A stretch of 64,000 bases of DNA from Psammoneis japonica. Lineage: Eukaryota. The position numbers and the translations under genes were made by a program. The notes beneath the pieces were generated by a model that saw only the letters and a list, made by a program, of their open reading frames with translations, had not been told where the DNA came from and searched no databases. Shown here in pieces: positions 8,501-56,152 of the stretch. The stretch covers positions 124,001 through 188,000 of the forward strand of contig QPGO01000044.1 in NCBI GenBank assembly GCA_008632985.1. The letters are read 5' to 3'. The stretch's first letter is position 1. Each line of letters begins with the position of its first letter.

Positions 8501-11139
8501 ACATCAGCCCATTGCTTCGCTTTCACTGGTGGGAACCCGTGCACTTCCACCTCGATGACTCCGATTGGCCGCCCGAATCCCGTGAGTTGTGTGGACGCTT
8601 CGTTGGCATTGCTGAGCACGTCGGCCACCAGATGACCTTCAAGATTCTATCTGACGAGACTCAGAAGATCCTCCACCGGTCCAACGTCCGCTCCGCTGCC
8701 ACCGATCCTGCTGTTCGAAACCTGCGTCTTGATCCTCCTGATGGGGAGCCACCTGAACCCATCATCAAATCTTGCCATGACGACAACCCCGTCGATTCTC
8801 CTGATGGGGAGATCAGGACACCCAAGATGCCAGTTTTCGATCCGCAAGACATCATTGGACGTACCTTCCTCATGCAGCCACAAGAGGACGGACAACGCCA
8901 CAGAGCTCGCATCGTCAAGGCCGTTGAAGACCACGAATGGAAAGTGAACGGCAATCCCGAGCTCACTAAGTTCGTCTGCTCTGTCAACAATGACGAATAC
9001 GAGGAAGTCCTTGCCTGCAATGACATTATGAATCACATTGAGCAAGAAGACAAAGACACTGCCATTTGGAAATTTCGACGCATCGTGTCACACGAAGGAC
9101 CTCTGAAGCCTCACGACCCAACCTGGAAAGGCTCAAGCTGCAACATCATGCTTGAATGGGAAAGTGGGGAGATCACGTCCGAGCCTCTTGCCATCATTGC
9201 CAAGGACGACCCCGTCACCTGTGCCATCTACGCACGAGAGAACGGACTCCTCGACACGGATGGCTGGAAGCGGTTCCGCACCATCGCGAGGCGCCAAAAG
9301 AAGCTGTTTCGCATGGCCAACCAAGCCAAGCTTCGCTCCTTCCGCACTGCACCTTGCTGCAAGTACGGATGCGAAGTTCCCCGGAACTGCAAACACGCCA
9401 TGTCACTAGACGAACGCAACGGCAACCGCAAGTGGGGAGATGCAACTAATCTCGAGATGGACCAACTCGACGAATACGAAGTCTTCCATGACTGCGGGCC
9501 CTTCAAGTCTTCCACTCCTCCTGCGGGACACAAGAAGATCCGAGTGCACCTGGTGCACGACGTGAAACACGACGGTCGCCACAAGGCACGACTCGTAGCC
9601 GACGGGCACCTCACGGACGTGCCTGTCGACAGTGTCTACTCCGGAGCAGTCTCCCTCCGTGGCCTTCGGCTGATGATTTTCCTGGCCGAACTCAACGAGT
9701 TGGAGACATGGGCCACCGACATTGGCAATGCCCACCTTGAAGCCACCACCAAGGAGAAGCTTTACATTGTAGCCGGACCCAAATTTGGCAAACTCGAAGG
9801 ACACATCCTTGTAATCCACAAGGCACTGTATGGACTGCGCAGCTCCGGTCTCCGCTGGCACGAGCGCTTCGCCGACTGCCTGCGAGCTGAAGGCTTCTTC
9901 CCCTGCCGCGCCGAACCCGACATTTGGATGCGCAGGAACGGCGACCACTGTGAATGCATTGCCGTTTATGTGGATGACCTCGCCATTTCCATGAAGGACC
10001 CTCAATCTTTCGTCGACACTCTCACGGAAAAGTGCAAGTTCAAGCTCAAGGGTGCGGGACCCATTGAGTTCCATCTGGGTTGCAACTTTTCCCGGGATCC
10101 CGACGGAACCTTGTGCCTGTCTCCGCGCAAGTACATCGAGCGCATGGTCGACAGCTGCGCCCGACTGTCTGGGGAGAAACCCACCACCAATGCCCTGTCA
10201 CCTCTGGAGAAGGGTGACCACCCCGAACTGGACACTTCCGAACTGCTGGGACCCGATGGCATTCACAAGTTCCAGTCTCTTGTTGGTTCACTCCAATGGG
10301 CAGTGTCCCTTGGTCGAATTGACATTGCCACGGCCGTCATGTCACTCTCTAGCTTCCGAGCTGCGCCCCGTCAAGGCCACTTGGATCGTGCCAAACGCGT
10401 CTGTGGGCACCTCTCCAAGATGCAACACGGTGCTCTCCGCGTTCGCACGGAAGAGCCCGACCATTCGGATCTCCCTGCTCTGGCCCATGAGTGGATGCAT
10501 TCCGTGTGTGGCAAAGCAGAAGAGATGATCCCGAAGGACGCTCCACCGCCCCTTGGCAAGTTTGTCACTGCCACCCACTGCGTCAATGCAAACTTGCACC
10601 ATTGCATGCTCACCGGACGCTCTGTCATGGGAATGCTCCGCTTCCTCAACAAATTCCCGGCTGATTGGTTCTCTAAGAAGCAAGCCACCATGGAGACTGC
10701 GACCTGCGGGTCTGAATTTGTTGCCGCAAGGACTTGTGTTGAGCAGATTGTCGACCTGCGCATCACCCTGCGCTGCCTTGGCGTCCCGATCCGTGATGTT
10801 GGTCACATGTTCGGTGACAACAAGTCGGTTGTAGACAGTGCCACCATCCCGCACTCCAAGTTACACAAGCGACACACTGCACTGTCGTTCCACCGTGTGC
10901 GTGAGGCAATTGCCTCTGGTTGCCTTGAGCTCCACTTCATCGAAGGCTCCCGCAACCCTGCTGACATTCTCAGCAAGCATTGGGGTTGCTCCCAAATCTG
11001 GGACCTTCTCTGCCCCCTCATGTTCTGGAACTTCATTCCATCCGAAGTCGAATCTGTTTCTGTGACTCCTCAAGCAAACTGGGGAGTGACAGGATTTGAA
11101 CAGGATTTGGGTGCGCGCGAAGTGTCGCGCGCTGTTTAG
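5509..11139 (+). pseudogene. gag-pol polyprotein pseudogene (gag, protease, integrase, RT, RNase H)
   Basis: Gag FK*GIKRDP (TGA at 5932-5934, likely from CGA). Protease LVDRGANGG. Integrase VATDT...LISDRAQ...SEPHQQHQN..ER. RT HKARLVA, KALYGL, YVDD. RNase H SEFVAA, GDNKS, NPADILSK. Frame breaks near 7578 and 7950. Confidence 0.93.
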
Positions 11140-11362
11140 TTTGCCGCGCACAGTTTTGTGTGCTTTAGTTCCGCGCGTTCACGCGCGATGTAGTTTGCTT
11201 TCGAGCCACAAGGCTCACAAGGATGATGACAGTAGCCCGATTATGCCGACTTGCACGTCTTTCGGCTCCTGTGACGGTCTCTGAGCGGAGACTCATCTGC
11301 TGTTTAGACAGCAGTGAGGAGTCATTGTTTGAATTCTTGCCATTTGCCTTCAATTTCTGTCA
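11087..11362 (+). repeat. 3' LTR
   Basis: Copy of the 5' LTR, preceded by the PPT and followed by the TSD. Confidence 0.97.
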
Positions 11363-11927
11363 TGCAGCACACCTGTTTTGTCCGGTCATTTTGCGCCAAG
11401 CATCAGTGCGGCGCTCAGAAAAGCTTCTTCTTCGACACAAGAACTCTTGCCTTGATGATGTCTCTGCCAGACTTTTGATCATCAGCCATCCACTTGCTTG
11501 GATTGGTCTGTCTCTGAGGCACAGTTGCAACAATTCTTTGTTGGTTTTTGTGTCATGTGTTTGCCTGCACTTGCCATGGCCATGCACTGCTTTGCACACC
11601 GTCACAAGCCGGCCATCCCTTTTTTGTGTTGTCTCTTGAGTCTCAAAACTTGTCCTTGTGCAGCACACCTGTTTTGTTGCACAAAGTGTGAGTGTGATGC
11701 TCAGAAAAGCCTCTTCTTTGACACAATCTCTTACCTTGATGATGTCTCTGCCAGCCTTTTGATCATCAGCCATCCACTTGCTTGGACTGGTCTGTCTCTG
11801 AGGCACAGTTGCAACAATTCATTGTTGGTTTTTGTGTCATGTGTTTGCCTGCACTTGCCATGACCGCGCACTGCTTTGCACACCATCACAAGCTGGCCAT
11901 CCCTTTTTTGTGTTGTCTCTTGAGTCT
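11363..11927. repeat. Tandem duplication (~284-bp period); the copia is inserted in the first unit
   Basis: 11451-11643 matches 11735-11927. The empty site cttgtc(t/c)ttgtgcag|cacacctgttttg is intact at ~11649-11676 and split by the copia at 4293/11363. Confidence 0.85.
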
Positions 11928-28330: not shown

Positions 28331-30170
28331 CATTGCCGAAAACCAAAAGAGGTGCCTGTTTTGCACGTGAAGTGGACTTGGTCTTCTTGCGGCTTGCGGG
28401 GGGGGGGGGGGGAAAGAAGGCTCCATTGGAGAGAAAGAAATTGAAAAGAAAAGACATCCTTGAGAAAACCAATGCACAACAGAATTGCACGCAGAAGGAA
28501 AAACTTGCTGGCATCACACAAGCAGGTTCCATCTTTGCAAACCCTTCTCATTTTACGCTTGGTTTTCAAGTTTTACACCCGTTTTTTAATTGTCATCAAA
28601 ACAGTCGGCCCTCTGATCATGCATTTGGCAATGCAGCATTGTGAGCTGCTTGGAGCACCTGGGTCATGTGCCATGTTGCTCCTTCGGACAATGCTTCCCA
28701 AATTCACACTGTGACATGGCATTGATTTTTGCTTTGTGCACCTCCCGGATGGCAACAGCATTGCCTTCCATTGTCGCCATGTCCTTGATGTCACAGAGTT
28801 TGTCTCTGAGAAAGCCCTTGACTTTTTCCTCCTCAGAACCAACTTCATTTGACTGGCATGTGACAAGAAAGCTGTTGACAAAAATGCGCCACTCCTTTTG
28901 GGCAGTGACTTCACAAAAGAACTGCATGAACCAACAATGGCTCCTGTCCTGGGGTTTGTAGAGGACATGATGCATGACCATTTTGACAACAAAGTGTGCA
29001 CCGTGAAGGTCCTGTGCTTGGTCATCAATCAGATCTTGAAGACTTGTGCAACGTAAAAAATGGAAACAAGGCTTGACTGAGACAGGATCATTGAGGTCCT
29101 TCCCGGCAATTGTCTGGCACATGTGCTCCACCATCACCTTTGTGTTGCGGTGAAGGTCACGATGGTGTTCCTCTTCTTTTTCTGTCTCTCCGGGCAGGGT
29201 GCAGAAACAAAGAGCATTCTCCAAATTTTGATGCCGCAGGACATGTTCACCTTTGTTCCGGCAGGATTTCTTCAGCACCCAACCACAAGTCATGATGTGG
29301 GACCAAACATTGGGACATCCGACAGTTTTCCCAACAGTGTTGTTTGCACAGATGAACTCAGTGATGCAGGGAATGCAACAAAGCTTGGGCTCATGGCAAA
29401 GGAAGGGAAGTGCAAGGAATTCTGGAGAGGGCGACCAATTCATTCTCTCCACAAACTGCTTTTTGGACGCACACGTGGCAACTGTGCTCTTGAGCTTGGG
29501 GAGCCAAAAAGCTCCATTCCAAAACCATCAGCAAAACATTCTGTGTCATAAAAATTGACATTGTCAGGAAAGGTGAACAAGGGATCAGAGTCAACCTCAT
29601 CCACTGATGGGGTGAAGTCATTGACTGCCATGGCCGGCAATCAGTTGGTGGTTCACGCAAAAAGTGCTTGAATCACAACAGCACATGCTCTGGTCAAATT
29701 GATTTTGGGGAGAGGGTGCACTGTTGTGAAATGCATGGAAAATGGCTCATGCAGAAAAAGCACTGAAAATGTGGCAGAGAAACGTGCACAGAATTCCGGG
29801 AAAAAGTGAGACGCAAAGAGGGAGTGCACATGTGGAGAAGAAGGGGGTGCACGCACAATGCCAGCACACACCATGATGCACAAACGGGGTGCAAAAGCAA
29901 AAACCAAGTTGAAATCTAAAGTGTCAAAAGCAAAGAGGATAAATCATCACAACTTAAACAACAAATCACAAAACATTTGAAAATGCAAGTTGCTTTGGGA
30001 AAAATTGCCGGTGCAAATGGACAACAAAATTCCTCATGAAATGTGCAAATGCCTTGCATTGTGAAGACACCATTAAAGTTTGACTGTCACATTTAGAAAA
30101 TTGAGACAAACAAAATTCAATGGCAAACAAATGTCAACAACAGCAATGACCATTGCATTGCGGCCTCTGG
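28331..30170. repeat. Dispersed repeat, copy 1 (unclassified TE with a decayed minus-strand ORF)
   Basis: Colinear with 40722-42295 from aggtgcctgttttgcacgtgaa to ttgcattgtgaa...ttgc(g/a)gcctct. Copy 2 lacks ~28940-29150. Confidence 0.85.
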
Positions 30171-30840
30171 TGCATCTCCCATCAACCTGCCAGCATCATG
30201 TTGATGACAACTTTCATGCTGACATGCACCCCCCCCCTCCTGAACTGGACTGTTGCAGCAAGCACTTTGGTGGTGCATGTCTTGTTGGGCTTCCCACACA
30301 ACAAGAGTGCTGTGTTCCTCAGCAAACAGAAGCTGGGTGCTCTTCATCCACACACTGGATGGGCACTGGGCAGGTGTTTCAACTTGAGGACTGTGCCAGT
30401 TGGTGTGCTGCCATGGAAATGGGATCAGTTCCTTGAGCATTTCCATGGGTGGCTTCACAAACAAGGCCACTCACTTATGGGTGCAGCAAACCTGAGCAGC
30501 CAGCTCAAATTCCACACACGGTGTGCTGTCTTTGGGCTCATCCAAATTTTTCTGTGCTTCAGAACTTCATGCGTTGAGTGTTGGTCACCCAATTTGCCAT
30601 TGTGAAGTGCATCTTGGAGCAACAAAACATGAAGTTGAATTTGGAAACTCAAATGCTGAGCCATCTCAAGCACAGGCCACCAGGCTTGCTGGCACGCACC
30701 CAAGCCCAGCTGCTTTGCATGTTGAAAATCAAGATGCCAATGACCTCCCATGCATTGGATGTCATCAAGGATGCAGCATCCTGTCTTGAATCAATGTTGC
30801 AGCCATGGATGGCTCCAACTGGATGTCATCCCCAGTGTGT
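30170..30840 (+). pseudogene. Decayed LINE fragment (post-RT region)
   Basis: Fragmentary ILEQQNMKL and ALDVI segments and Trp spacing resemble diatom LINE ORF2; heavily degraded. Confidence 0.35.
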
Positions 30841-30849
30841 CACATTGCC

Positions 30850-31176
30850 AAGCCACGGGAAGGAAATTCCACAACATGACCTTCCCACTTCTTCCTCACA
30901 TGGCTCATTTTCACATTGACAAGCAGCCCACATTTGGGCTTCCTTGGAATCATTTTTGCTGCTTCAATGGCCTTTTCCCATTCACAGTCAGCAATGGTGG
31001 AACTGTGCCCACTTCTTCCTCATCTGGTTCATTTTCACAATGACAAGCAGCCCACATTTGGACTTCCTTGGAATCATTTTTTGCCACTTCAATGGCCTTT
31101 TCCCATTCACAGTCAGCAATGGTGGAATGGAGCACCGCAATGTTTCTGTTTTAATCAACAGCCAAATCCTCGGACT
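30850..31176 (-). pseudogene. Mutated, internally duplicated fragment homologous to the ankyrin-like gene at 54264
   Basis: Translates IADCEWEKAIEVAKNDSKEVQMWAACHCEN versus ITDCEWEKAIEAVKNDPKEAQTWVVRHYEN in the intact gene (54322-54520). A ~120-bp unit is present twice. Confidence 0.92.
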
Positions 31177-31360
31177 TAACAGGCTAGAGTAAAACCATCT
31201 CAATGATTTGGACTGCTCACTCTAAAATTTTAACTGATGTCGACATAATCATCATTCGCATTATAATGTCTTCTAGCACGTGACAAAGTGTTGTCAACTC
31301 ACGTGCTATTCTTTCTTCAAACAACAACTTTCCTTGCCTTTCAACAACTTGGCGTTGTAC

Positions 31361-34300
31361 CTAGAGTTGAAGAGTACTCGTGGCTGGGCAAAAGCTGTCT
31401 TGGCAATTTGTGCCAAACCCCTGAAACGTTCCACCAAGGTTTTGCCTGCATTGAAAAGACCCAGTGTTCGAAACGCAACCACCCGAGTTCAAACAACAGG
31501 CCCCTTTGACAGTGCAGCGATAAGAATCGCAAATCTTTGGTGGAAGGGCGTGGACATGGCGCTGTTAGAATCAACGATTCAACAACAAACCGACATGGAG
31601 CAACTGACTCTTACCGTATCATCACCCTGGTAAACACCATCTACGAGTCCACAAGACTCCTCGGAGACAATGATGCAAACTTTATCGGTCTTTGAACAAC
31701 ATGCTCCTTGCTTCACATTGGTGACGAGACAAGAGTCGTCCTCACACGTTGTACCGTATCCCTGGAAAGTACCTCCAAGTTGAGTTTGGCAATTATAAAT
31801 CCTCCTGTTTGGGATGCAGCTCCCTGACCCCAAGCAGCAGGCTCCTTCAAGTGAGCATTGATCAGCATGACAAACCTGAAATTTGTAACAATAGATGACC
31901 GAGGCCCCGTTAGAATCCTATCATTGCTTCGAATCGATTCTGTTCAATTGTCTCTTACCGTTTCGGCTCCTTGGTAAACTCCGTCAGAACTCTTGCAATC
32001 TGATTCCGAGATCACGTTGCATTCCTTCTTAGTCTTTGAACAACATGCTCCTGACGTGGGGCATAATCCGTCCGTACAAGTTGTGGTGTATCCTTGGAAT
32101 GTACCACCAAGTGTATTTTCACAGCGATAAAGCCTACTGTCCGGAATGCATTCACCCGAGGGAAGGCAGCAAGCCCCTTCGATACCGCATCGATCCGCAT
32201 CACAAAGCTTCAAAAGCAAAGATGCAATCACAGATCTTTGTAAGAATGAAGACTACACACATATTTGCTCATAACGTGACCAGGTCTTACCGTGTCGTCA
32301 CCTTGGAAAACTCCATCAGAAGTTTCGCAAGAGTCCTTTGTGTCAATGAAGCATTCTTTTGTGCGCTTTGAACAACACGCTCCGGGTCTAAGCCCTGTTG
32401 TTGTGGGGCTCATTGTAGGAGGAGGAGTAATTACAGGACAAAAGCTGTCTTCGCATGTTGTGTCAAAGCCCTTGAAGGTCCCGCCGAGAAGGTTTCCGCA
32501 CCGAAAGCGTTTGACATTTGGTACGCATTCTCCCGAGTCCAGACAGCAAGCCCCTTCGAGACTACAGCGACCATTATTACAGGTCTATGAATGATCACGG
32601 AGAGAGGTGTGAGTTCTATAAAAACGTTTCGAAGAAGTTCAATGTAATGTCAAGTGGCTCTTACAGTGTCGTCACCTTGGTAAACTCCATCTGACTTTCT
32701 ACAGGAAGCCTCGGGAAGTACGTTACATTCTTTCTGGAATTTTGAACAGCACGCTCCCGACTTGCATGATGTGTCTTGGCATTTTGTACCGAAACCCTGG
32801 AACACACCTCCTAGGGTGCTTTCGCATCGGAACAACTTGCTACCCGACTCACAGCTTCCCGACGGCAAGCAGCAAGCTCCTTCAACAGTGCAGCGATAAG
32901 GATCACAAGGCTACAGACAGCAGAAGATTGCCAGAACGATGAAGTCCCGTTAGAAGCTAAACCAGTTCATCTATAAACTGAGCTGTAAATGTCGCTTACC
33001 TTGCCGTCGCCCTGATAAATGCCATCTAAGATGTTGCAATTAGCCCTTGTGGTAATGCTGCATTCTTTCTCGAACTTTAAGCAGCATGCTCCTGTGGGTA
33101 GCATTGTTGGTCTCGGGGTCGGTCTCGGGGTTGGTCTCGGGGTCGGTCGCGGAGTCGGTCTCGGGGTTGGGGTGGGGGTCGGTATGGGAGTTGGGGCCGG
33201 GGTTGGTCGCGGGGTCGGTCTCGGGGTTGGAGTGGGGGTCGGCATGGGAGTTGGGGCCGGGGTTGGTGTCGGGGTCGGTCGCGGGGTCGAGGGAACAGCT
33301 GTCGTGTATCCCGCAATTAACTCCTTTACTTCATTGATCTGTCGGACATTGTTTGCAGTGGAGCTGCCAAGGTCAATTCCATTAAACTGACAAAGCAACA
33401 TAGAAAAAAGCAACTTTGTAAGTTCTTCGAACAAAAGAATCACACAATCAGCATTTTCGTCGAAAATTAACTCACTGATTTATCTGGAGTAGAGAAACGT
33501 TGCACCCGGGTGCAACCGCCCCCTGCGTTATTGTCGCACTCACCGCTTACGCAGTTGTACGCTAGAATGGTTCGTAACCTTGCTTGTGGGTCTCTCCATC
33601 TTTTTGAAATTAGGAATGCAAAACCAGGAAAGTGTTCAATTAGCAAATCAAACGCATCAAAATCAAAACGACAGAACTAGCACTCACCCGTAGTTATAGT
33701 TTGTGGTCGAACATTCATCCTGAGTTCCTTGATCGTGAAGGCATCCCTATGAATCCAAATGATGATGTCGCTGTATTTTCAGTCGTGCTTTCGTCAGCCT
33801 ACATGGCGTGAAATGCATGCGTTTGACTTACCTGGTTGTGTCCTGTAGAAAAGAAACCCGATCAAGAGGCAAGGACTGGTGAGTCTTAAAAGTGCAATTC
33901 CAACTTGCTCACGAAAAGAAGCGCGGAGAGCAAAGAGAAGCGACTCACCAATTTCGTGACCGAAAGTGAAAAATCCAGCAGAGCAGAAATAATTCGTCAC
34001 AGAGAACATAAGATCAAATCTTGGTCCCACAAAAGCAAGACCGCAATATTCGAAACTCCCAAGAAGCATAGCCACAACATCCGCTCCGTACTCAATGCGT
34101 TTCGCATGTACATCATCCATATTTCCGTCAGTTGTCCCCCGGAGATCGTATAGTGCGGGAAAATAACCTTCTTCGACATACGAAGCCTCTCTATAGGCGT
34201 GAACAAGCCGTAGGCTTGTTTCGATGCCCGATAGTTCGTAAGCAGTGTTGGTCTCTTCAACTGAAAGGTCGATTAGCAAAATCATGTTGATCTCGGTTTG

Positions 34301-34998
34301 AATAGTGAGTGTGCAACCGATTGGTAGCCCGGATTGTTTACATTCTGCAGAAAGAAAATAATGAGCAACAAGGCAAAAAATAACACACCATAAATGGGAA
34401 GATGCTTGCACCTACCAGCATCTCCTGTCCATAAAACCATGATATCGATAATGCCCCCAGAATCATCATTGGGGATTAGCTTTCGTCGCCGAAGCCCGTC
34501 AAAATCGACCTTATGCCCCTTACTCTCTTGAATAGTTTCAAGTTCTTCAGGGTCGGCTTCGTCTGGATAGTCAGCCCTATCGGTCTCGATTATCTCCTCG
34601 TTGCCGAACTCATCTGGCTGGATCTTGTAGATTTTCTCCCCGACAGAGATAGAGCCAACCAGGAGAGTGCTGAAGCCATTCTCCGGGAATTTTCGCACCA
34701 ACAAATTCATCGCATCCACATTATTCTCGTTTTCACCATGGAAAAAATTTTGCATGACCTTTCCCGTCTGTTTGAATGTATGGGAGTCACCTCCATCTAG
34801 CTCGAAGATGATGGAATCAACGCCACTGAGATCTCCAGAGGTAAAATCGGACAAGTCAACGGCGCACCTGGCCTCTTTGCAACCTTTTTTAATCACATAA
34901 GACGCGGTGTTCGCTTCACCAGACGCCATGCCTCCACGACAAGAAAGTGCAAACAAACCTGCCGGAAAGAGAACGGTCCATCTCGTCATGATAACCAT
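31361..34998 (-). CDS. Secreted zinc metalloprotease (metzincin, M12B/reprolysin-like) with Pro/Thr/Arg linker and 10 Cys-rich GACC repeats; ~11 exons
   Basis: Hydrophobic N-terminus. Exons 34998-34416, 34344-33949, 33842-33832, 33746-33688 and onward join at GT-AG sites to give HEIGHNQGCLH (HExxHxxGxxH) and RTILAY. (PTPR/PTPA)n at 33110-33290. GACC exons run to TAG at 31363-31361. Confidence 0.88.
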
Positions 34999-35359
34999 TC
35001 TTGCTGCTTGTCTGTAGAGAAATTTTATGACAACAATTACTCTCGACGTTTACGAGCGGAAAAGTGAGAAAGATAAAAGCAAGATCACATCATGGAGCAC
35101 CTCCTACACTATTTTTTACCTTGACCAAATTTTCCATCCAACGTCCAACTGATCAATATTTCGACATTTTTATGCAAATATTCGGAGCCATATTTCCTAT
35201 CAACAAGGGCTTATGGGATTTTGGTGGCGATTTGAGACTGAACGACAGCGAAATTTCTCGCGGCTAACGCAAACACTGCAAATTCCATAACCCAACGCTC
35301 TACCATGAGTACCGTACACAGAGTATTTTAGCACAGTAGATAGGAACCTATCCCCAAGG

Positions 35360-35862
35360 TGCGATGTTCGCTTCACCCGACGCCATGCCAGAGAGACAAG
35401 AAAGTGCAAACAAACCTGCCGGAAAGAGCACGGTCCATCTCGCCATGATGACCATTCTTGCTGCCAATCTCTAGAGAAAAATGTGTGACAATGCTCTCCA
35501 CGTTTACGAGCAGAAAAGTGAGGAGGTAAAAACAAGATCGCGTTTGGCCAATGTCCAACGTCCAACGTCCCAATGACATTTGCCACCAATGCGGAATGCG
35601 GAGCCGAATGATTATGTGCTGTCATTTCAACAAGTTCTTGTGGTTTTTGGTGGCGATTTGAGATTGAGCGCCGGCCAAATTTCTCGGCTCCAACGGCAGG
35701 AAACGAAAAATGACAGGCCCTGTGCCATGATGTACTGTCCCACAGCAGTTTATGCCAACTACGGAGCTGAATTATAACATGAACAAGTTCTCACGGTTGT
35801 TGGTGGCGATTTGAGACTGAGCGCCGGCCAAATTTCTCGTCTCTTTTGGCAGGAAACGAAAA
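35360..35862 (-). repeat. Local duplication of the metalloprotease 5' end and upstream motif
   Basis: 35360-35541 matches 34903-35087. The motif ttggtggcgatttgaga(c/t)tga...aaatttctcg recurs at ~35221, 35648 and 35801. Confidence 0.85.
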
Positions 35863-38800
35863 GAGTGTTTCCAACGCACAGCAGCAATCCCCGTGGTGAC
35901 AACACGGAGAAATTGTCAAAAACCTGCCGGAGCCGATGATGACATTGACGCGGTGGATGAGGTGTCTAAACATTCATCGTTTTTTGGACCATTGCAGCAG
36001 AAGCTCCGCTGGACCCTCGTTGACACACGGTTGCAATTGTCCGTTCGGGGACGTTCATTTTGGCAAGAAACATTGAAACACACCGTTTTGCTTTGTTGTG
36101 GTGCCATGTTGCATGCAGACGACACATCAACTCACCATTTGCCGGATTTTCGGAACCCGATGTGTCAAAGACCGAGTTCACAAAAAGGCAAGCAAATTTA
36201 AAATCATCAAAGCTGTGTTGCCAACATCATGTCCAAGGCTCGCCACTTGTGTTGTCTCACTCAACTTTCTTGCCACTGCAGCCAGTTTTTGTTGTCTTTC
36301 AAGGCATGAGCACACAATGAATCCAATGTCGTTGTCATGTCATCTGCCCCATTTGAGCAACGGCGTTGAACAGGCGAGCATTTGCAAGACTTCGACAAAG
36401 CAGCTGCAATGCATTCAGCCAAGTGTTCTTGAATGGGGGAGAGTCGGGCAGATGGCAGCAAAAATGAAAAATGAAGTTGGCATGTGGTTCAAGAAAAAAG
36501 CAGTCAAACAATGTCGATGATGTCGCTCTGATGCTGCCACTCTGTGGAGCGACAAACAGCAGCGAGCGGAGCTCCTCCATGGCTCGCATGTCCACTCTAG
36601 ATTCATAGATTCATCGCAAAGTCACAAATGTCAAATCTCAAAATAGAAAAGTGTGACTTGAAATGAGCACCCATGGATTGCTTTGCCAATTTGTGGCATG
36701 AAAGAGGTCAAACACAGTTGTCAGGAGGCCAGCCATGGATTGGAAAACAGAGCGCAGGGGCAATTTCATCAGAAAGCATCAAAGGGGTCTTGGAAGGAGG
36801 GGCAATGGAGGAAGGAGTGGGAGCAATCATGTCAAAAGGATTGTTTGGGGGATCAGCAGTCATGGTCACAGGGGCAATTGAGCAAGGGAGAGCAGAAGGG
36901 GTCATGAAAGGAAGCGCAACAGAGGTGGGGCGGCAATTGTGTCAGAAGGATCACAGCACAAAGGGCGCAGAAAAGTGTGGAGGAGGAAGGAGGGGCCAAT
37001 GACAAAGGATGGCTGGGAATGGAGGGCAAGGAGGATGATGACAGCAGCAGAGAAAAAGAGCTGAGTGGAGAAAGATGGCCTTGACGGAGGGACGAAGGCC
37101 ACTTTGGAAGGTTGTGCCATCGCTGCAGTTGTTTTCAACACTCGCTTGAAGTTCATCGTTTTTTTCCCTTCAAGTGTGGTGAGTCACGTGTCTTGAATCC
37201 CGGTGCATTCCAGCTCTAGGTGGGACCTCGTGCCCACCACTGAACTGTGACACAGTTGTTTTTTGTCATCCGCTGCATGTTTTGCGTGCACATTTCTAGA
37301 AAGGAAAAGCCCTGCGCAACTCTGGCAAGGAGCCTGCGCAGCTCTGCAGCATTGCGCACCCCATTTTTCTAAGCACAAAATCAAAAATCATGCCAATGAC
37401 AAAAAAAGCCACTGCAGCGGGCTTCCCCAATTGCAACCTTGCTCCCTTGATCTCTTGTCACACAACTTTGTTGCCGCCAAAGTGCTTGTCTTGCTTGACT
37501 TTGCGCCGCAGCAGCTGCAGCTGTCACAAGAGCTGGGTGGAGACCAGCACAAACAAGAGCTGCAGCTTGGGCCATCAATTAAAAAAAAAAAACAATGACG
37601 AGGCAGTGCAGCTGTTGCAAAAAAGATTTGGCAGTCCAAGCTTGACATTTGAAGAGCAAGGCATTCAGAGACCCAGGAAAGGGCTGTTGGGTGGCTGTGC
37701 TCCATTTTCAATGACAAGCAAATCTTTGAAAGAACCCTGCACCATCTGCAAGGTGAAGCTTGAGCACTTGGATCTTGAAAACATCAAGCTGACTCAGCCA
37801 TGTGATGGCATTGCTGTGTGCACAAAGAAGTGCCCTTGTTTTGATGGCACCCATTGAGCTCAAGCGCCGTTGTCAATGGTTGCTTTTGGAGCATTGCAGC
37901 AAAGCTGAGATTTGGCTGACGGCACTCCTGATGATCAAAAAACTGTTGTGCACTTTGGTCAGGAAATGAGTGGCAAAATCAAGTCTGTCAAAAGGAGCAG
38001 GACTGAAGAGGGAAAAGTTGCAAGTCTGATGCAACGATGATGGAGTGTGAAAGCATCAAAATGAATCACTGGAAGAAAGAGGAGGTGGTGCCAGAAAGCT
38101 TCCAGCGCATTTGAAAAAACTGTCCAGCCCTCCCATTTTTGCATGCAGGGAATGCATGTTAAGAGCTTTTCATTTGATGAAATGAGATCTCAGTGCACTT
38201 TGTGTGGAGCTGGCACATGCTCTGCAGAAATTGCACTGGCTCAACAAAAAGTGAGTCAGAGGCACAATTCCCTGGGTCAAATGTTGCTGAAATGAGCTCC
38301 TTTTGGACATGCAAAAAATGGGGCACTCAACAAAGCTGTGGTGTGCTTTTGTTTTGTCAAAGGGTGGTGGAGACAGGGTCATTTGAACATGTCCATTTGT
38401 TTGATTTTTTTTGGGGGGGGAAGCTCCCAAAATGTCCAACTTTGTCTTACAGATGGGGGCATGGGGGTGATGTTCACACAAGGCTAATTTGTGTTTGAAA
38501 CAAGTGAAAAAGAAAAAAAACATTCAATCACAAAAAGGCACGCACACTGCTCAATGTGTTGGCACACAAAAAAAATGAGTCACAAGCCATCATCACTGAA
38601 CCTGTCATTGTCAACATTGTCATCAAACATTTCCTCAGGTGCAATGCTCAACTGGAGCACATTGCTGTCAGCCTGGTTCTGGAGCACCTCAAGTGTTGTT
38701 GTGGTGTCCATTGCTCATCATGAGCAGTGCTGCTTGGGCTGCAACAAAAAAAGCAGAATGAGCAACACTGAAGCTCAGGATGGTGCTGCACCAGATCTGT

Positions 38801-39459
38801 TTTTGTCTTGTCAGACAGTCAACCTTTTTCTAAAAAATCACCCCACCATGCAGCGTGTCAATGAGAAACAAATGTGTGAGCTCTTTCACATCAAACAGCA
38901 AACAGTGCACTCTCAACAAGTGCAGAAGCAGTGCTCACTTGCGCCAGCTCCTAAAACCAGCTTTGCATTTTGACTTGGTCACTTCCACCCAAGCAAGATC
39001 CAAGTGATGCTAAAAAGCAATGTGGCAGCATGATGGGTGGAAAAGTCAGTGAGTCAATTGCACGAAACAATGACAACAGCCAACAAATCTCTCATTTTCA
39101 CTGGTGCACTGCCTTCAATGCTTCAACAGCAGAAAGGTGTGAATGTTGCATCCCCATGTGGGCTTCTTGCAGCTGCCCATTGGTTTTGCATGCAGGGACT
39201 CTTCGACACATCATGATCACCAGCACCATGCTGCACCAGATCTGCTGCTGCTGACACTTGCAACACTTCTCCACAAAATTGTGCTGCTTTTGAAAACTGT
39301 TCTGCACAGTGGCATCCATCCACAAGCAAGTGACACTCTCACGAATTGTTTTTCAACAGCTGCTGGTGGTCATGGAGAATGAAATCTCCGCCACTGTTTT
39401 CCCATCATTCTTTGCTGTCTTGGTCTTGCAACAAGGCAGGGTCTGCCACACCACAAAAA

Positions 39460-39845
39460 CTGAGCTGCAGAAATGGCCAATCAAAGCAGTCCAAGCATGC
39501 AAGCTCCAAAAATGCATGACCAAAGGACACACATTGCACAAACTCACTGCAGCTGACATGAGCCCGCTCACTGTCATTGCTGTTTGTGCTTTGTGACACT
39601 TTCATTGATGTGGCCATTTCCTCCTTCATTGTCCAACACACCTTGTGCCATTTTGCAGCTGCAAAAATGGCCAGTCAAAGCAGTCCAAGCATGTGAGCTC
39701 AAAAAATGCATGGCCAAAGGACACACATTTTTTGTCTGCCCATGTGTCTTGACTTTTGCCCCTCTGGCATGCAGCTCTCAATCCATGGCTGTTGGAGTTG
39801 CACAAACCCACTGCAGCCAACATGAGCCCACTCACTGTCATTGCC
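39460..39845. repeat. Diverged tandem duplication
   Basis: agctgca(g/a)aaatggcca(a/g)tcaaagcagtccaagcatg...aaaggacacacatt at ~39463 and ~39657. Confidence 0.75.
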
Positions 39846-40721
39846 ATTTGCACAATTCTGCCTTGGTTTCATGGCCACACCCTCTGCTGTTTTTTTTGCA
39901 CAAGCTCTGGTGCAGATGTTGCCTTTCTCTGATGGCGTGACAACAGTTCTCAACTGCCTGTTCAGACCTGCTCTTTTGTCAACATGCCTTCATTCCATGA
40001 TCATCAGCAATCTCATGCAGTGGAAAATGATTGGCATCAAGCCCTTTTGGTTCAATTGCTTGGCACTCTTCTCAGCATTTTTTGCTCTCATGTGCAAAGT
40101 TTCCACACAAGTTTCAGCACAAATTCTGCGTGTTCTGCAAGTCATTTCAGATGGACAATGCACCAAACTGCCAATTGCTCTCTCTTCACATCACCTCTCA
40201 AGTGCTGTCAACAACCCCCCTTCTGACCATTGTCCATTTGAGTTTCCTGCATTACATGGTGAACAATCTTCTGTCATTGCTGTTTTCAGAAGTTTGAAGA
40301 TGAGACCAACTCAGTGTGCAACAGCCATTCTTTCGTGTGCTGACAAGTCCACACAAGTTTCAGTGCATTTTCTGCATGTCTTGAAGGTCATTTTGGATGA
40401 TTCAATTGCCAAGTGCCAACTGCTCTTGGTCCATGCCTCTCCAGCATCAATGACTCCCCTTCTGCCCATTGTCTGCTTGAGTTCTCTGCTCCATGCTGTG
40501 AACAATGCTCCATTGTTGCTGCTCCCAGAAGTGTGAATTTGAGCCCACTTCAGCACAAGTTGGTCATCAATTTTGTGCCCCATTCCTTCTCATGTTGAAA
40601 CTCTTCCAGACTGCCTGTTTTGCCTTTTTTGCTAGACTTGATCCCAGGAAGAAGGCCCGATTGAAGCATTGAGCGCTTTCCTTTTGAAGTCTCATTGTGC
40701 TGCTCCTGTTTTTGTTGTTGT

Positions 40722-42295
40722 CATTGCCAGAAACCAAGGAAGGTGCCTGTTTTGCACGTGAAAGAAATTGAAAAGAAAAGACATCCTTGAGAAAACCAAT
40801 GCAAAACAGAATTGCATGTGGAAGGAAACACTTGCTGGCATCACACAAGCAGGTTCCATCTTTGCAAACCCTTCTCATTTTGTGCTTGGTTTTCAAATTG
40901 TGCACCCATTTTTTGTCGTCATCAAAACAGTCAGCCCTCTGATCATTCATTTGGCAGTGCAGCATTGTGAGCTGCTTGGAGCACCTGGGTCATGTGCCGG
41001 GTTGCTGCTTTGGACAACGCTTCCTGAATTCACACTGCAACATGGCATTGATTTTTGCTTCATGCACCTCCCGGTCGACAACGGCATTGCCTTTCATTGT
41101 CATCATGTCCTTGATGTCACAGAGTTTGTCTCTGAGGAAGCCCTTGACTTTTTTCCTCCTCAGAACCAACTTCATTTGACAGGCATGTGACAAGAAAGCT
41201 GTTGACAAAAATGCGCCACTCCTTTTGGGCAGTGACTTCACAAAAGATCTGCAAGAACCAACAATGGTGGAGGTTGTGACGGTGCTCCTCTTCTTTTTGT
41301 GTCTCTCCTGGCAGGGTGCAGAAATGAAGAGCATCCTCCAAATTTCAATGCCAAAGAAGGCACTTGCCTTTGTTCCGGTGGGATTTCTTCATGGACCAGC
41401 CATGAGTCATGATGCAGGACCAAACATCATTGGGATGTCCAAGAGTTTTCCTGACAATGTTGTTTGTGTGGATGACTTCAGTGACACAGGGAATGCAATG
41501 AAGCTTCAGCTCATGGCAAAGAAAGGGAAGTGCAAGGAATTCTGGAGAGGGTGGCCAATTCGTTCTCTCTGCAAACTGCTTTTTGGATGCACGCATGGCA
41601 GCAGTGCTCTTGAGCTTGGGCCTGAAAAGCTCCATTCCAAAACCATCAGTAAAATGTTCTTTGTCATCAAAATTGACATCATCAGCAAAGAGACAAACAA
41701 GGGATTGGGGTTGACCTTGTCTGCTCATGGGACAAAGTTGTTGACTGCCATGGCCTGAAATCAGCAGAGGTGGTTCATGTGGAAAGTGCGCGAATCATGA
41801 CAGCACACACTCTGGTCAAATTGATTTTGGGGAGAGGGTGCACTGTTGTGAAATGCGTGGAAAATGGTTTGTAGAAAAAGCACCAAAAATGTGGCAGAGA
41901 ATCGTGCACAGAATTCTGGGAAAAAGTGAGATGCAAAGAGGAAGTGTGCACGCGAAGATGACTGGGGCATAGACACAACACCAGGACACATGGTGATGCA
42001 CGAACTGGGGGTGTAAAAAGCAAACACCATGTTGAAATGTGAAGCATCAAAAGCAAAGATGATCATTGACACAACTTCATTTCCGCATCACAAAAGCTTT
42101 TTAAAATGCAAGGTGCCTTGGGACACACAACCAAAATGTAAATGGATGACAAAATTCACAATGAAACACAAGAATGTCTTGCATTGTGAAAGCACCGTTC
42201 AAGTTGGAACATCAAATTTAAAAGAGCAAGAAAACCAAAATTCAATGTCAAAATAAATTGCAACAACAGTGGCAACCACTGTGTTGCAGCCTCTC
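40722..42295. repeat. Dispersed repeat, copy 2 of 28331-30170
   Basis: Direct-orientation homology. ORFs 40768.. and 28138.. share KRKDILEKTNA.QNC..KE.LAGITQAGSIFANPSHF. Confidence 0.85.
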
Positions 42296-44190
42296 ATGGT
42301 GAAGGGTCGCCAAGACAAAACATCACCCATTGAATCATTGTCCCTGGCAGCCAAGTTGAATGTCCAAGCTGACAGACTGGCAGGACAATGCCAAGGCCAC
42401 TTTTCCAGTGACACCCTTTCCTCACCTTGAATTCCCCACTGCAGAGCCAACCTGGTCATTCAGGGAGGTGCGGTCTTGTCCAAGTGCAAGTCCACTGTCT
42501 GACATGAAGCATCTGTTGTGGCCCTCATTGGCTGCATGAAAGAGAAGTGCAGTTGGTCCAATGAAGTGTGTGATTTTGTCAACTGGGATGTGCGTGCTAA
42601 ACTGATGTCTCAAAATGTCCATTGGAAAGTTGGCATCAACAAGCTGGTGCAGGATCTTCTCATGACAAACAAAACTGTCCATCAATGCAACCCCACCCAT
42701 CCTGATTGTTGCATGCACTGTCAAGATCCAATGGAAGACAGAGACCACATTCTCTGCCATCCACACAATGAAGCTTGGTGCCAAAAATTTTAAAGGGCCT
42801 GCACAAGAAGTGCGACAATGTTCGCACATCTCTGTTCTTACATGATTTGCTTGTGTCAGCCACCAAGTCATGGTGCTGAGAAGAGTTGCTCTGTTCCAAT
42901 GACCTTTGCTGCAGTGTGATGTCAGTTTTTCAATCTCAGGAGCACATTGGGTGGTGCCAGTTGTTCAATGGGCATTTCTCACACTTGTGGAACATGACAC
43001 AAACTTCTTGTGTGTTGGCTGGCGGCACTTGTCAGACCCTCTCTGAACAGGAGCAGCAATTGGACTGGGCTGCTGCTGTCAGCAACCACATTTGGGAGCA
43101 GTGGTGGGACCTGTGGGACAAACACAATGATGCAGTGCATGGGCATCATGATGTGGAAACAAGGAAGTCTTCTTGGCACAGAGATGCAGAAGCAGAAGTG
43201 AAAGCCATCCATTCATGATCAGATGATTGCTGGAGACAAGGCACATCCATTGGACTTGGTTGAAGAACACTTGGCTCATTTGACACATCATCTTTGCAAC
43301 TGGTTGGTCATGGTTAAACCCATGTTCAAGTCAAGCATCAGAGAAGCAAAACATTTTGCTGCTGGAGGCACAAGAGCCATTGCAAGTTAAGCTCATTCAC
43401 AATCTCCTGCCCACCAACAAGACAGTCCACAGATGCAACTCTGTTTGACCACACCAGTGTCTGTGCTGTGAGCATCCGATGGAAGACAGAGATCACATGC
43501 TCCAATGTCCACACAACAAAGCCTGGTGCAGAAAGTTCCTGCAAGGTTTGCAGTGTCATTGCAACCAGATCAACACCATGCCCACACTTCATGACTTTTC
43601 ATTGGATTCTCTTCAAGCATGATTCAATGACAAGATGGTGCATCCCGTGGAGTTGGGCTGCTGCTGCAGAGCCCTGTGGCATGCTCAATCAGATGCAGGA
43701 TGCTGACAAGTGTTCAGTGGACGGCACTCTGTTTTTTGGAATGAGGCCCAGTCTCTGGATGTTTGTGTGTCTTGGGCATCCTTTGCAAGCACCAAGAAGA
43801 GAACAAACAGCCACCAAATTGGGCAGTGCAGGTGGGGTCGTTCACATGGAAACAATGGTGGAATCTGTGGGAAGAGCACAATCATTGTGCACACAGACAT
43901 GATGCAGACTCTAGGAAGTCATCTCAGCAAAAAAAAGTTGAAGCTGAATTGACAGCAATGTGTGCAACAAATGCCAGGAACATTCAGCCAAAGACCAAGG
44001 TGTTCTGCTCAACTCAGCAGAACAGCATCAAGCCTTTTCAACAATGCACGTGCAAAATTGGACCTCAATGGTCCGGCCCAGACTCAAAAAAAATCTCAAA
44101 GAAGCCAAGAAGTTGGTGCTTTGCAGCACACGCACCATCACCAGTTGCTTCCGTTGGGTGTCTCCTCAGGGAGATGCCGATTCAGACTGA
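42296..44190 (+). pseudogene. Two decayed LINE C-terminal fragments (RNase H end and zinc-knuckle region)
   Basis: VKGRQD...LSLAAKLNVQADRLAG, C..C...EDRDHIL, Q.HIGW.QLFNG, WEQWWDLWDKHN.AVHG. A second copy from ~43390 has HNLLPTNK, EDRDHMLQC and WKQWWNLWEEHN. Confidence 0.75.
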
Positions 44191-47100
44191 TTGCATTGAC
44201 TTCTGCCGCACCCCCAGCAGGGTGTGCCGGAGGTGTGGGCTGGCTGGCACCGGTGTTGCTGGGCAAAGGTGCAGTGGCACTTTAAGTTGGGTTTGATTTT
44301 TCTTTTGGCACAGCATCGCCCTTGGGTGATGCCAATCTCCTTGGCAAATTGCTGCACACTCCTGCCACACTGTCAGTGTGCTGGCAGTGTGGGTCAGCTT
44401 GTTGCCAGAGTTGCAGGGTGGAAGTGCAGCAGCACTTTAAATGCAGATTTTTGGTTTTGTTTTGTCACCACCCTTGCTCAGCATGGTCAGATGATCTCAC
44501 CAAAGACCTGTCCAAGTGAACAAAAGACAGCAACCACCAAATTGTTCTCACCACTGGGGCAACATCAACAAGGGTGTTCCACCCAAAGAAATCTCTGATG
44601 CATTTGAAGCCACGCAACTGCAAAAGCTGCTGATCAATCAGTGCAAAGAGGACAAGCTCCCATCATCTCTTGAACCAGGCGCATCAGGAACAGTGCAGGG
44701 CATGGCAGTCACGGGAAAGGCAACCACGGCGTTTTCATTCAGAACAGAAGCTGCGGCAGGCACTGGAGCGTGAGAAACAAAATGTCAACAAACAAGCTCT
44801 AATTTTGGCAGTCATGGGCACACTACGGCCACATAAACAACATTGCCTGTTGTGCTAGAGGAATTGGTAAATGAATAAAGTGGTGACGCATCAGGGGAAG
44901 GTGATGGAGACGAACATTTTAAAACCATCATGGTCCACTTATGTTGTTTTATTGGTGCGACTTGTCTTGACGCGTGCTTTTTTGTTGGTTTCGCGGTGCT
45001 CGCGAACACTCTAGAGTATGCGTATTCAAGCAAAGATAAGTCTTGTATGTATGATGCGGTTTATATTTTTATTCAAATCTGAAAAGGTTGGGTAATGATA
45101 ATGTCGTTTGCAATCTTCAGGACATGATAAATCTAAGTGCATAATGCACTGAGACTGCGTCTGGCCGTGGGGAGTGGGGGGTGGGGAGGAGGGGTCGGGA
45201 AAATCCGAGAACCTGATGGCCGACAGACGTGGTGAGCACGTGGTGAGCGCTCCACAGTGGTTCAAAGCGGCATTAGCTTCGTAGAAATAATTTTTTTGTA
45301 CCAGCGTAGAACTGTACGCATGTGTCTGGTACACAAAAATCATGCCACATCAACCATTTTCTCCAATCTTCGGCAATGGCGGCGTTCGTCGGTTCGTAGC
45401 TATTGCGCTGCTGAAACCATGTCAATTGTCATCAAACCTATGGCACGTTACTCGTCACCCTCTTCTTAATTCATGTGTTCCTTTGAAACTACGTATTCTT
45501 TAGCCACAATCCAGACAATCAATAACATCAACACAAGGTAAAAATCCAAAGCAGATGCGAGTTGCTTGTTGGTATTAACCTCGTATTTTTATCACAAACG
45601 CCCAACTAAACAGTATTTTGCTACTCTTTCACTTGATTTTCCAGGGTTTCATTGTTGACAAATACCATGCTCCAATCGTCCGAGGTGCGGTTCGCCGAGG
45701 CCATGAATGCATAAGCCGTGTGGAGAAATCTTTGGATTGAATAGATGTTGTGTCGACACCCCGATCCGTTTTCAAACATTTCCAAAGGAATGCAGCGAGT
45801 TTCTGAGTTTCTGTCTATTCTGTTGGTGACTCGAATAAGCAAGCTATGCTCGATACCACCTCGGTCTCCACCGAAAGGTACGATATCAAAACATCCGACT
45901 CCGCTTGTTTGTGTCGTGGATTCAGATGTCTTCTATAGACAGCTTTCGTTTGTGGCAACAGATGATTCCATAATGTAAAATAAGGCATAAGAATGCCCCA
46001 TTGACATCATACTAGCTTTTTCTTTTAGAGATAGGAAGGAGATCAATGGTAGCTCAGCAGCAAAGACATTGGATCGCGCTCGGTTTCAGAGCTGAGATCT
46101 GGGCTAAACCCATTTTACAAAGAGCTGCTCAAGTCATAACACAGTGCCACAACTTGTGGGCAAGTGACTAACACCAGAAGCGTTCAAAAGCAGTGTGGAA
46201 AGGATGAGACGATCATCGTCAATCCAGTTTGAGCTTACGAAGGATTATTTTACGATCGAGTGTTCGCTGTTTGACGTCATATACTGGAAAATTGCGTACA
46301 TTCTACACAGAAATCGGAACACCAATTTGAAGCTGCTACTTTGTGGTCAAAATAAGCTTGCCATTTGGAGCACACCTAAGGAGCGGTCACTCAAACGAGT
46401 AAAGTGAAGGGCTATGGAAGGTGCTCCAAATGCCACAGCAGTTTTGATGTTGGAATAACATCTTGAAACTTGCAGCTCTGTGTCGTTAAATGGGATTCCG
46501 TAAAATAGCCTTTCATGCATGTAAGCAAGGAATTTTAAAAATTTTCGAGGTCGATCGAGCTCCAGAATATTTATTGAGATTTTAGTCGTACAAGTCGAAG
46601 CTAATGCCACTTGCGCGTACTGTAGAACTGAACCACTGTGCGAGCAACACCGTGGTGAGCAATTAGTAGCTCTCAACTGCGTGGGAAATGCACGAAAAAT
46701 TGCTCCAGCTGTTTTCCAAAAAAAAGCAGATGTCGCCAGACGAACTTGTGCAAAACCACGGAGACATGTCTGACCCCAGTGAGCCAGAGGCATGACTGTG
46801 CTAGTCGCAACCTGATGTGGTGCACGTTTCTCTCCAGTGCTAACTCTGTCAATCATGGTTTTGATTGAGATTGATGGATTTTTGGACACAAGACTTCCAC
46901 TGACACTCGATGGACAAGAATGGAATCATCCGACTAAAGAGTTTGACCGTTTTTTCGGGGGTCGTTTTCTAGTTATACACAATATATTCATGCACATATA
47001 TATAAAATATATTTGACCGTTGCCTCATTTCACCGCACGAAAAATTCTGGTACAAAACCTACGAGAGAAACGAGTGAGGCAATCAACCCAGCCAGATCGA

Positions 47101-55697: not shown

Positions 55698-55889
55698 GTG
55701 GAAGGACGGAAAGGTGGAGGAATACCGTATGTAAAGTATGGTAGTTAAGAATCGTCTGTAGTTTAGTTATGCATGTCATCTCATAAGAGACCGTATGTTG
55801 TTTTGATTGGCGTCGGCAAAATTCATTGTTTCTGATTCTCCTCAATTTCCTGTCAGTCGATGAAGCTATACCATGCCGAGATCAAGCAC

Positions 55890-56152
55890 CTGCCGAGGTG
55901 CGTCATGCCAAGCTGCTGGCGCTTCAAGAGTTTGAGGAGCAGCTCATGATTGGAAGTGCTGGTATCAACCAAGATGGTGACATTGAGCAGCACAAACGGG
56001 ATTTTGATGCAATTTACTGCAGTGATTGCGGCAATGAAGTTTTAAAAATGGACGGATGGAAAGGTGACGGAATAACGTGATGAAAAGGTTTGGTAGATAA
56101 GAATCGTCTCTAGTTTAGCTCATCACTCACTACGTCTGTTGTTTTGATTGGT
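55890..56152 (+). repeat. Tandem duplicate of the ankyrin gene 3' end and 3' UTR
   Basis: gccgaggtgcgtc(g/a)tgccaagctgc...aagaatcgtct(g/c)tagtttag...tgttgtttt(t)gattgg matches 55545-55810. Confidence 0.88.

Follow-up and report, generated by a model that had tools for sequence, protein, structure and literature searches.

Repeat-induced point mutation (RIP) of ascomycete fungi converts C to T, mostly at CpA, which thereby becomes TpA; it is triggered by duplication, mutates both partners and lowers the GC content. Another kind of dinucleotide-specific hypermutation has recently been described in Bigelowiella natans, in which mutation-accumulation lines revealed two integrated viral regions mutating ∼1000 times faster than the remaining genome, nearly all changes being A>G or T>C and every one located at TpA (bioRxiv 10.64898/2026.01.13.699255). 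In the genome of this organism, clusters poor in TpA and rich in CpA and TpG are enriched in reverse-transcriptase and DDE domains, and an ADAT2-like deaminase has been put forward as an as yet untested candidate (bioRxiv 10.64898/2026.01.13.699255). Here, we have analyzed a 64,000-nucleotide stretch of nuclear DNA from the diatom Psammoneis japonica (contig QPGO01000044.1 of assembly GCA_008632985.1, positions 124,001 to 188,000; hereafter the window), which contains an intact ankyrin-repeat gene, a mutated fragment related to it and a Copia long terminal repeat (LTR) retrotransposon. On the basis of current results, the fragment is probably a duplicate located in a transposon/repeat block and hit by two DNA-level transition processes that are absent from genic DNA.

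A mutated copy of part of the ankyrin gene

The fragment (30857-31185, minus strand, as delimited by local alignment) is a pseudogenised copy, 78% identical, of codons ∼17-83 of the ankyrin gene, where its counterpart is found at 54313-54512. Two blastn matches cover most of it: 31008-31185 versus 54487-54313 (78.7% identity over 178 nt, E 7e-39) and 30869-31000 versus 54503-54370 (78.4% identity over 134 nt, E 1e-25). An earlier note on this DNA had described a minus-strand fragment of the intact gene. Its coordinates were correct to ∼10 nt and all five parent-to-copy changes that it quoted could be found in the local alignment (5/5), but it had overlooked an internal tandem duplication, whose units (30884-31002 and 31008-31127) are 93% identical to each other. 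The two tandem units of the fragment, both on the minus strand, are referred to as copy A (30857-31000) and copy B (31008-31185). These comparisons support an origin of the fragment in the ankyrin gene of the host or in a paralogue very close to it. Homology to the gene was not observed to continue beyond the fragment, as a Smith-Waterman comparison of purine/pyrimidine-coded sequences against 29500-30860 scored 27 (maximum of shuffled sequences, 39), and tblastn of the gene product revealed no further copies of the gene in the TA-depleted domains described below. Word-based contigs of sequencing run X1, with a depth of ∼58, were identical to 30033-30991 and 31098-31390, and no alternative letters were listed for 29797-31418.

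The direction of change was examined in an alignment of the intact gene and both fragment copies with 60 diatom homologues. The residues conserved in this family (EVDYDKNITxLYxAIT...P.EA.TWVVRHY...MWRFLPIHSACA) are all present in the intact gene, and NIT, LY, TWVVRHY and MWRFLPIHSACA were retained in 53-60 of the 60 homologues. At the conserved sites the fragment has NIA, LH, TIA, S and MWAAC, followed by HC in copy B or QC in copy A. Each copy has 26 amino-acid differences from the gene; the outgroup majority carried the gene residue at 15 and the fragment residue at 1 of them in copy B, and at 16 and 0, respectively, in copy A. With regard to the changes linked to TA or CG, the numbers of outgroups sharing the residue of the gene and that of the fragment were 60:0 and 53:0 for T>A, 60:0 for Y>H, T>M and R>C, and 55:0 for Y>C. 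Thus, the parent-to-copy direction previously proposed is borne out by 60 outgroups, and the alternative that TG/CA was the ancestral state fails. The state of the gene is ancestral, and this holds irrespective of the functional paralogue that served as donor. In addition, one parental CG is TG in copy B but CA in copy A, so this site was still CG at the time of the tandem duplication.

When both copies were pooled, 8 of the 9 parental TA and 20 of the 24 parental CG dinucleotides had become TG or CA, which agrees with the previous claim that most alignable sites of both types had changed in this way. All TAs (3/3) and CGs (9/9) were converted in copy A. In copy B, five of six TAs were converted and one was kept, and 11 of 15 CGs were converted, 2 kept and 2 otherwise changed. 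Two CGs remain in the whole fragment, and the TA changes are found on both strands (A>G and T>C). Transitions were present at 29 of 66 TA/CG positions and at 16 of 250 other positions (both copies pooled, Fisher p = 3.5e-12), a test that overstates independence because changes predating the tandem duplication are common to both copies; the corresponding values for copy B alone were 17/42 and 7/133.

TA-depleted domains and their edges

We calculated per-kilobase dinucleotide ratios (rho) along the window and used context-sensitive TA positions to set domain limits. Genic stretches had TA rho of 0.4-0.8 and CG rho of about 1, whereas three blocks were strongly depleted (TA rho 0.01-0.14, CG rho 0.1-0.5) and rich in TG/CA (rho 1.6-2.1). 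The density of TA was 4.67 per kb in the depleted blocks versus 40.7 per kb in normal DNA. The first domain (1-31185, 31 kb) contains the Copia element, outside of which TA rho is 0.01-0.14 and CG rho 0.1-0.56. The second (35760-44824) contains a copy (40760-42294) of a repeat located at 28433-30168 in the first, and within this older repeat pair (29149-30168 versus 41266-42294) 41 CA-versus-TG double differences could be counted. The third is an intergenic island at 57516-59235, in which 58001-59000 has TA rho of 0.03 and CG rho of 0.18.

The fragment forms the last 330 bp of the first domain. TA is absent between 30476 and 31152; the next two TAs, at 31152 and 31177, each lie in TTAA, and from 31185 on a TA occurs every 5-50 nt, which is the normal density. 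Mutated parental sites can be followed to 31160 or further, a CG survives at 31171 and the gene homology stops at 31185; therefore, the edge of the depleted block coincides with the outer end of the fragment within ∼25 nt. As these positions show, the mutation follows a sharply bounded block.

The intact gene and a control duplicate

The intact ankyrin-repeat gene (54264-55697, plus strand; fragment counterpart at 54313-54512) belongs to a diatom-specific family. Its product matched only diatom ankyrin-repeat proteins, with at most 50% identity over the full length, and the organism-named sources of these matches were Nitzschia, Seminavis, Cylindrotheca, Mayamaea and Grammatophora. The family is very large (250 hits of 8000 scored candidates). 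In the ∼200 nt shared with the fragment, the gene contains 6 TAs and 15 CGs (rho 0.52 and 1.18), as compared with TA rho of 0.39 and CG rho of 0.99 in the rest of the gene, and with 0.47-0.49 and 0.93-1.15, respectively, in the kinesin, PAP2 and WD40 genes of the window. Mutation had previously been described as one-sided, with the caveat that selection on the intact gene could hide hits. Our results agree with one-sidedness, the shared part showing no depletion against the remainder. Moreover, three of the six TAs in this part (codon reading by eye) could be removed by a synonymous change and yet are present, so that selection alone is not the explanation of their survival and the caveat is answered.

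The 3′ end of the same gene (55545-55810) has a duplicate at 55892-56151 on the plus strand, in normal DNA, which may serve as a control. It covers the last ∼40 codons and the 3′ flank, with 87% nucleotide identity and 78% amino-acid identity over residues 428-468. The pair differs by 12 transitions and 21 transversions, only 5 of the 33 mismatches are interconversions among TA, CG, TG and CA, and TA rho is 0.46. Since this duplicate in normal DNA has an ordinary spectrum, duplicating part of the gene is not sufficient and the location in a block decides. Judging from both pairs, homology between gene and fragment is not the trigger of the mutation. The previous suggestion that targeting is not limited to transposon-derived sequence was also confirmed, as a host-gene fragment is affected.

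Mutation of the Copia element after integration

The Copia retrotransposon (4294-11362, plus strand) has two LTRs of 276 nt (4294-4569 and 11087-11362) and is flanked by a perfect target-site duplication of 5 bp, with TGCAG found at both 4289-4293 and 11363-11367. The LTR pair differs at 15 of 278 aligned positions, and all 15 differences are transitions within TA/CG/TG/CA interconversions: 4 CA-versus-TG doubles, 4 TA/TG, 1 TA/CA and 2 CG/CA. As LTRs are identical at insertion and these now differ, the mutation acts on DNA after integration, and RNA editing before integration is excluded as the main source. TA-versus-TG/CA differences and CA/TG doubles account for 13 of the 15 positions, and 19 and 21 CGs are still present in the two LTRs. 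Considering the small number of single CG differences, the four doubles are best read as ancestral TAs that mutated independently in both LTRs. By our estimate, about half of the TA site-copies in the LTRs, ∼5% of those of CG and none of ∼200 other sites would have been hit.

A similar picture was obtained for the pol reading frame (RVT_2; 7945-11139, plus strand), which is still open over 1064 aa. Among 656 well-conserved columns, 95 differ in this element. Of the 36 columns with conserved Tyr, 28 were changed, to Cys (16), His (8), Phe (3) or Trp (1), and none of the conserved Arg (0/48), Gly (0/49) or Trp (0/16) residues was changed. Of 68 polarised single-step changes, A>G (31) and T>C (13) together made up 44, of which 32 had a 5′ T; 9 were of the C>T type, 7 of them at CpG. 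The loss of TA cannot create a stop codon, which explains why the frame stays open though the element is wrecked. TA rho in the Copia region is 0.11-0.28 and CG rho 0.75-0.94. Thus, TA and CG loss, which the earlier note treated together, are not a single mutation, because this element has lost its TAs yet keeps CG (rho about 0.9, Arg intact). The losses of TA and CG are two separable processes, of which TA loss is the faster.

Flank dependence of TA loss

The survival of TA in the depleted blocks, relative to normal density, varied with context: 0.86 for TTAA, 0.33 for CTAA, ∼0.1 for ATAA and GTAA, 0.16 for CTAG and at most 0.01 for ATAT, ATAC and GTAC. A four-parameter flank model fitted all ten tetranucleotide classes (likelihood-ratio chi-square versus uniform decay 223, 3 degrees of freedom), with decay constants of 0.08, 0.93, 2.08 and 2.37 when the base 3′ of the target A is A, G, C and T, respectively. 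In the fragment, all four TTAC/GTAA changes were in the TTAC>TTGC sense (alignment read by eye). Mutated Tyr codons of the window were His in 5 of 8 cases after A or G versus 3 of 16 after C or T, which leans to a rule based on the +1 base. The flank model also gave ∼8 His as the expected part of the Cys:His split at these codons (hand calculation), and 8 were observed.

Relatives of the Copia element in metagenomes

For comparison, we collected 76 metagenome loci encoding relatives of the window's Copia pol. TA rho was higher than 0.5 in 71 of them (median 0.69), and the idea that TA poverty is native to this Copia lineage was rejected on this ground. The TA-loss signature was found in only three loci (L001, L031 and L035; TA rho 0.13-0.31, CG rho 0.74-0.80), which come from other data sets and belong to Copia families with 63-66% nucleotide identity to that of the window. 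Their conserved Tyr residues have become His or Cys at sites different from those in the window's element. L031 and L035 are 94.5% identical, and 86 of their 93 mismatches are transitions and 74 are TA/CG/TG/CA interconversions, with 20 CA/TG doubles. The converse pattern was observed in several relatives, such as L045, L048 and L064, with CG rho of 0.05-0.29 and TA rho of 0.65-0.71.

Proposed explanation and its alternatives

We propose that a duplication placed ∼200 bp from the 5′ part of the host gene, or of a paralogue very close to it, at the border of a transposon/repeat block, and that some of this sequence was later duplicated again in tandem. The piece may have been brought there by a mobile element, or it may be what is left of a paralogue disrupted by insertions. 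Because it lies inside the block, the fragment would have been exposed to both mutation processes. One of them would be a fast and saturating hypermutation of TpA to TpG or CpA on either strand, dependent on flanks, such that TA with A:T on its 3′ side is slow and TTAA almost immune. The other would be slower and turn CpG into TpG/CpA, as methylated cytosine is expected to do when it is deaminated. The fragment would thus be a bystander, and the working gene is unaffected. The positional or chromatin-based targeting suggested in the earlier note is consistent with our data, and may follow silenced chromatin or the inserted block itself. The TpA process would be an enzymatic genome defence, based either on the deamination of adenine, which yields inosine, or on a modified thymine able to mispair with G; adenine deamination is a tenable choice, made here with considerable reserve.

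It should be noted that several observations weigh against this explanation. Positions of the fragment outside TA and CG differ from the gene by 12-13% (16 transitions and 15 transversions), so that the fragment is old or its donor was a close paralogue, and some of the TA/CG differences could predate the copying; a paralogue donor does not affect the polarity. At 31040-31050 both conserved Val codons have become Ala (GTT GTT to GCT GCT) and are not at TpA, and 12 of the 44 A>G-type changes in the Copia pol have a 5′ A, C or G instead of T. Such A>G-type changes outside TpA may point to a second, weaker specificity or to an overall bias from AT to GC within the blocks. In the flank model, present-day normal domains stand as a proxy for the ancestral composition, and the formulations with the +1 and the −2 base are mathematically identical, so a model of survivors cannot assign the strand. 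The assignment to T[A]Y is tentative and has two weak supports, the TTAC sites of the fragment and the Tyr codons, in which Y is at +1 by definition. In the three metagenome loci with TA loss, 10 mutated Tyr codons follow a T and 7 of them have become His, contrary to the flank rule of the window, although these loci may belong to another host whose specificity is not the same. Finally, run X1 is probably the assembly's own sample, and its agreement with the fragment is not independent support.

Among the alternatives, a repeat-induced process resembling RIP but specific for TpA, which leaks over a few hundred bases and so reached the fragment, seems unlikely to us. It would suit the composition of the depleted domains, which consist of repeats and a Copia, the very high word depth of parts of 29000-29900 in run X1 and the position of the fragment at the very edge of the block; leakage of fungal RIP into neighbouring single-copy DNA is also known. 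On the other hand, the conversion of TA to TG/CA is the reverse of the RIP direction (CpA to TpA), the edge is sharp (∼25 nt) and not graded, and neither the gene-fragment pair nor the 260-bp 3′ duplicate is co-mutated, although these may be under a threshold of length or identity. Another possibility is that double-stranded transposon RNA underwent A-to-I editing of the ADAR type and was then reverse transcribed into pre-mutated copies, with the fragment carried in a retroelement transcript. According to the discussion in the B. natans preprint (bioRxiv 10.64898/2026.01.13.699255), U upstream of the edited A is usually favoured by ADARs, and the sense strand of the Copia pol does show more A>G than T>C (31 versus 13) and more Tyr>Cys than Tyr>His (16 versus 8). 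However, the flank model accounts for the imbalance of Cys and His, the fragment contains A>G as well as T>C, and one parental CG came to differ between the tandem copies once they had been duplicated. In addition, the LTRs were copied from one template and yet differ at 15 TA/CG-type positions, including the four CA-versus-TG doubles, which largely refutes this possibility; we regard it as highly improbable.

The 12-13% divergence at other sites, the very large size of the ankyrin family and the frequent occurrence of CpG decay alone in related Copia loci (L045, L048 and L064) would also be compatible with a simpler history, in which a diverged paralogue was the donor and the poverty in TA and CG results from ordinary CpG decay and the native composition of the repeats. 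We find this scarcely credible, considering that a functional paralogue would retain NIT, LY, TWVVRHY and MWRFLPIHSACA, that TA rho stays at 0.01-0.14 for tens of kilobases and thus lies far under the median of the relatives (0.69), that conserved Tyr of the Copia was destroyed in 28 of 36 columns and that the LTRs differ solely at TA/CG-type dinucleotides. A sequencing or assembly artefact, namely systematic miscalls at modified bases in heterochromatin, might be suspected as the runs covering the stretch are all from one sample of one study. Nevertheless, identical sites have changed in opposite directions in the two tandem copies and in the two LTRs, X1 contigs at a depth of ∼58 match the fragment region exactly, and the same signature occurs in three metagenome contigs of other data sets. 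The exact contigs and the metagenome loci make an artefact very unlikely, and we give it next to no weight.

Features adjoining the depleted blocks

The normal-composition flank (31186-35759) begins at the end of the fragment and carries a minus-strand gene with a Reprolysin_3-like domain. The open reading frame (ORF) at 33797-34411 (minus strand) matches Reprolysin_3, an M12B-like metallopeptidase domain, with 29.4 bits (cut-off 22.4), and is adjoined by a proline-rich repetitive ORF at 33043-33330 (minus strand); the two are probably parts of one secreted-protease-like gene at the border of the depleted block. In contigs of run X2, segments of 80-83 nt that begin with CT and end with AC are skipped at 31534-31615, 31873-31957, 32207-32291 and 32584-32665. 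This run gives no coverage of 29000-31411, and no RNA run was listed for 29000-33000; neither point is taken as evidence here. These skips in 31412-33000 look like short introns of a minus-strand gene, X2 being listed as 'DNA?' and of uncertain nature. Weak self-matches (62-64%) among 31369-31498, 32059-32160, 32419-32548 and 32772-32874 outline a repeated exon structure of ∼350 nt. The word depth of run X1 is ∼58 over 30033-31390, which includes the fragment and its left flank, and ∼110 in 31412-32750, where two variant contigs have ∼55 each. The block edge may be hemizygous, or the other haplotype may diverge by over 10%, an outcome that two alleles independently mutated at TpA would give.

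The Reprolysin_3 match was the sole one above the cut-off in a Pfam search of 224 ORFs of at least 90 aa in 1-45000 and 57000-59500, regions that include the normal flank in which this ORF lies; the Copia pol frame was searched separately and matched RVT_2. Matches in the depleted domains were all below the cut-off, and no credible host-gene domain was found there by this search, which heavily mutated fragments would escape. We also counted 225 stop-free stretches of at least 90 codons across the same regions. Long open frames are present on both strands in 5935-11139 and all through the depleted domains, for example 6046-7197 (minus) and 6050-7201 (plus), with 383 codons each, which is an expected consequence of the loss of TAA and TAG.

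Comparison with known systems

A full-text literature search found no report of TpA depletion or hypermutation in diatoms. One candidate report, PMC4504042, was rejected, since in its matching passages 'TpA' is part of the word 'Tpase' and 'dinucleotide' refers to nucleosome positioning. Thus, the diatom case adds to a recently described kind of TpA hypermutation, with one prior description found in the literature searched. The presence of a saturated footprint in a diatom suggests that the process is widespread in algae of the stramenopile-alveolate-rhizarian (SAR) group and old. It is conceivable, and offered here as a tentative proposal, that diatoms possess a dedicated DNA-level mutator of inserted or silenced blocks, acting with near base-pair-sharp edges, saturating in its conversion of T[A]Y into T[G]Y and quicker than CpG decay, sharing its origin with the process in Bigelowiella and occurring throughout SAR. 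If this is true, it would represent an ancient genome defence that is chemically opposite to fungal RIP, raises GC and, by removing TAA and TAG stops, lets dead transposons keep long open frames.

Compared with composition alone, the window adds several kinds of information: the fragment and 60 outgroups fix the direction of change, the unmutated parent gene and its euchromatic duplicate tie the process to the DNA block as opposed to homology with the gene fragment, and an LTR pair with a target-site duplication shows DNA-level action after integration. The flank rule, in particular the immunity of TTAA, is a constraint that any candidate enzyme must reproduce. There are also consequences for genome annotation: gene finders may call the stop-free frames of dead elements as genes, the change of Tyr to Cys or His degrades homology searches, and dating by LTR divergence would be badly inflated.

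Decay of CpG driven by 5-methylcytosine resembles what is observed here in that CG becomes TG/CA in repeats (rho 0.1-0.5) and not in genes (rho about 1), but it covers only the CG half of the pattern, TA loss being faster and separable; to our knowledge, TA loss has no link to cytosine methylation. The footprints of animal ADAR and APOBEC enzymes are also clustered transition hypermutations of retroelements with a preference for the neighbouring base. However, these enzymes act before or during reverse transcription and on one strand, whereas the changes in the window took place after integration, on both strands and to saturation. RIP shares with the present case the character of a genome defence, the restriction to transitions at specific dinucleotides, the wrecking of transposons, the sharp-edged compositional domains and the mutation of non-transposon sequence inside them. 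In contrast to RIP, TA is destroyed here and not made, with TG/CA rho reaching 1.6-2.1, GC is raised and not lowered, and the intact gene and the linked duplicate are unmutated, these duplicates being short (200-260 bp).

The process in B. natans, as far as it is described in the available text of the preprint (bioRxiv 10.64898/2026.01.13.699255), differs from the present one in several respects. It was seen directly in mutation-accumulation lines, whereas ours is read from sequence, and its host is a chlorarachniophyte (rhizarian) with integrated viral DNA, as opposed to a diatom (stramenopile) with islands of LTR retrotransposons and repeats and a host-gene fragment. The viral region there has a rho of 0.45, as compared with the near-saturated values of 0.01-0.14 in our blocks. 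The diatom loss follows a flank rule in which TTAA is immune, and no context beyond TpA was found in that text; in addition, TA loss is accompanied here by CpG decay. Nevertheless, both processes consist almost exclusively of A>G and T>C changes at TpA that give TpG or CpA depending on the strand, both leave DNA that is poor in TpA and rich in CpA and TpG, both are confined to blocks of foreign or mobile DNA (here, three depleted blocks among genes with TA rho of 0.39-0.52), and both oppose the usual GC-to-AT bias of mutation.

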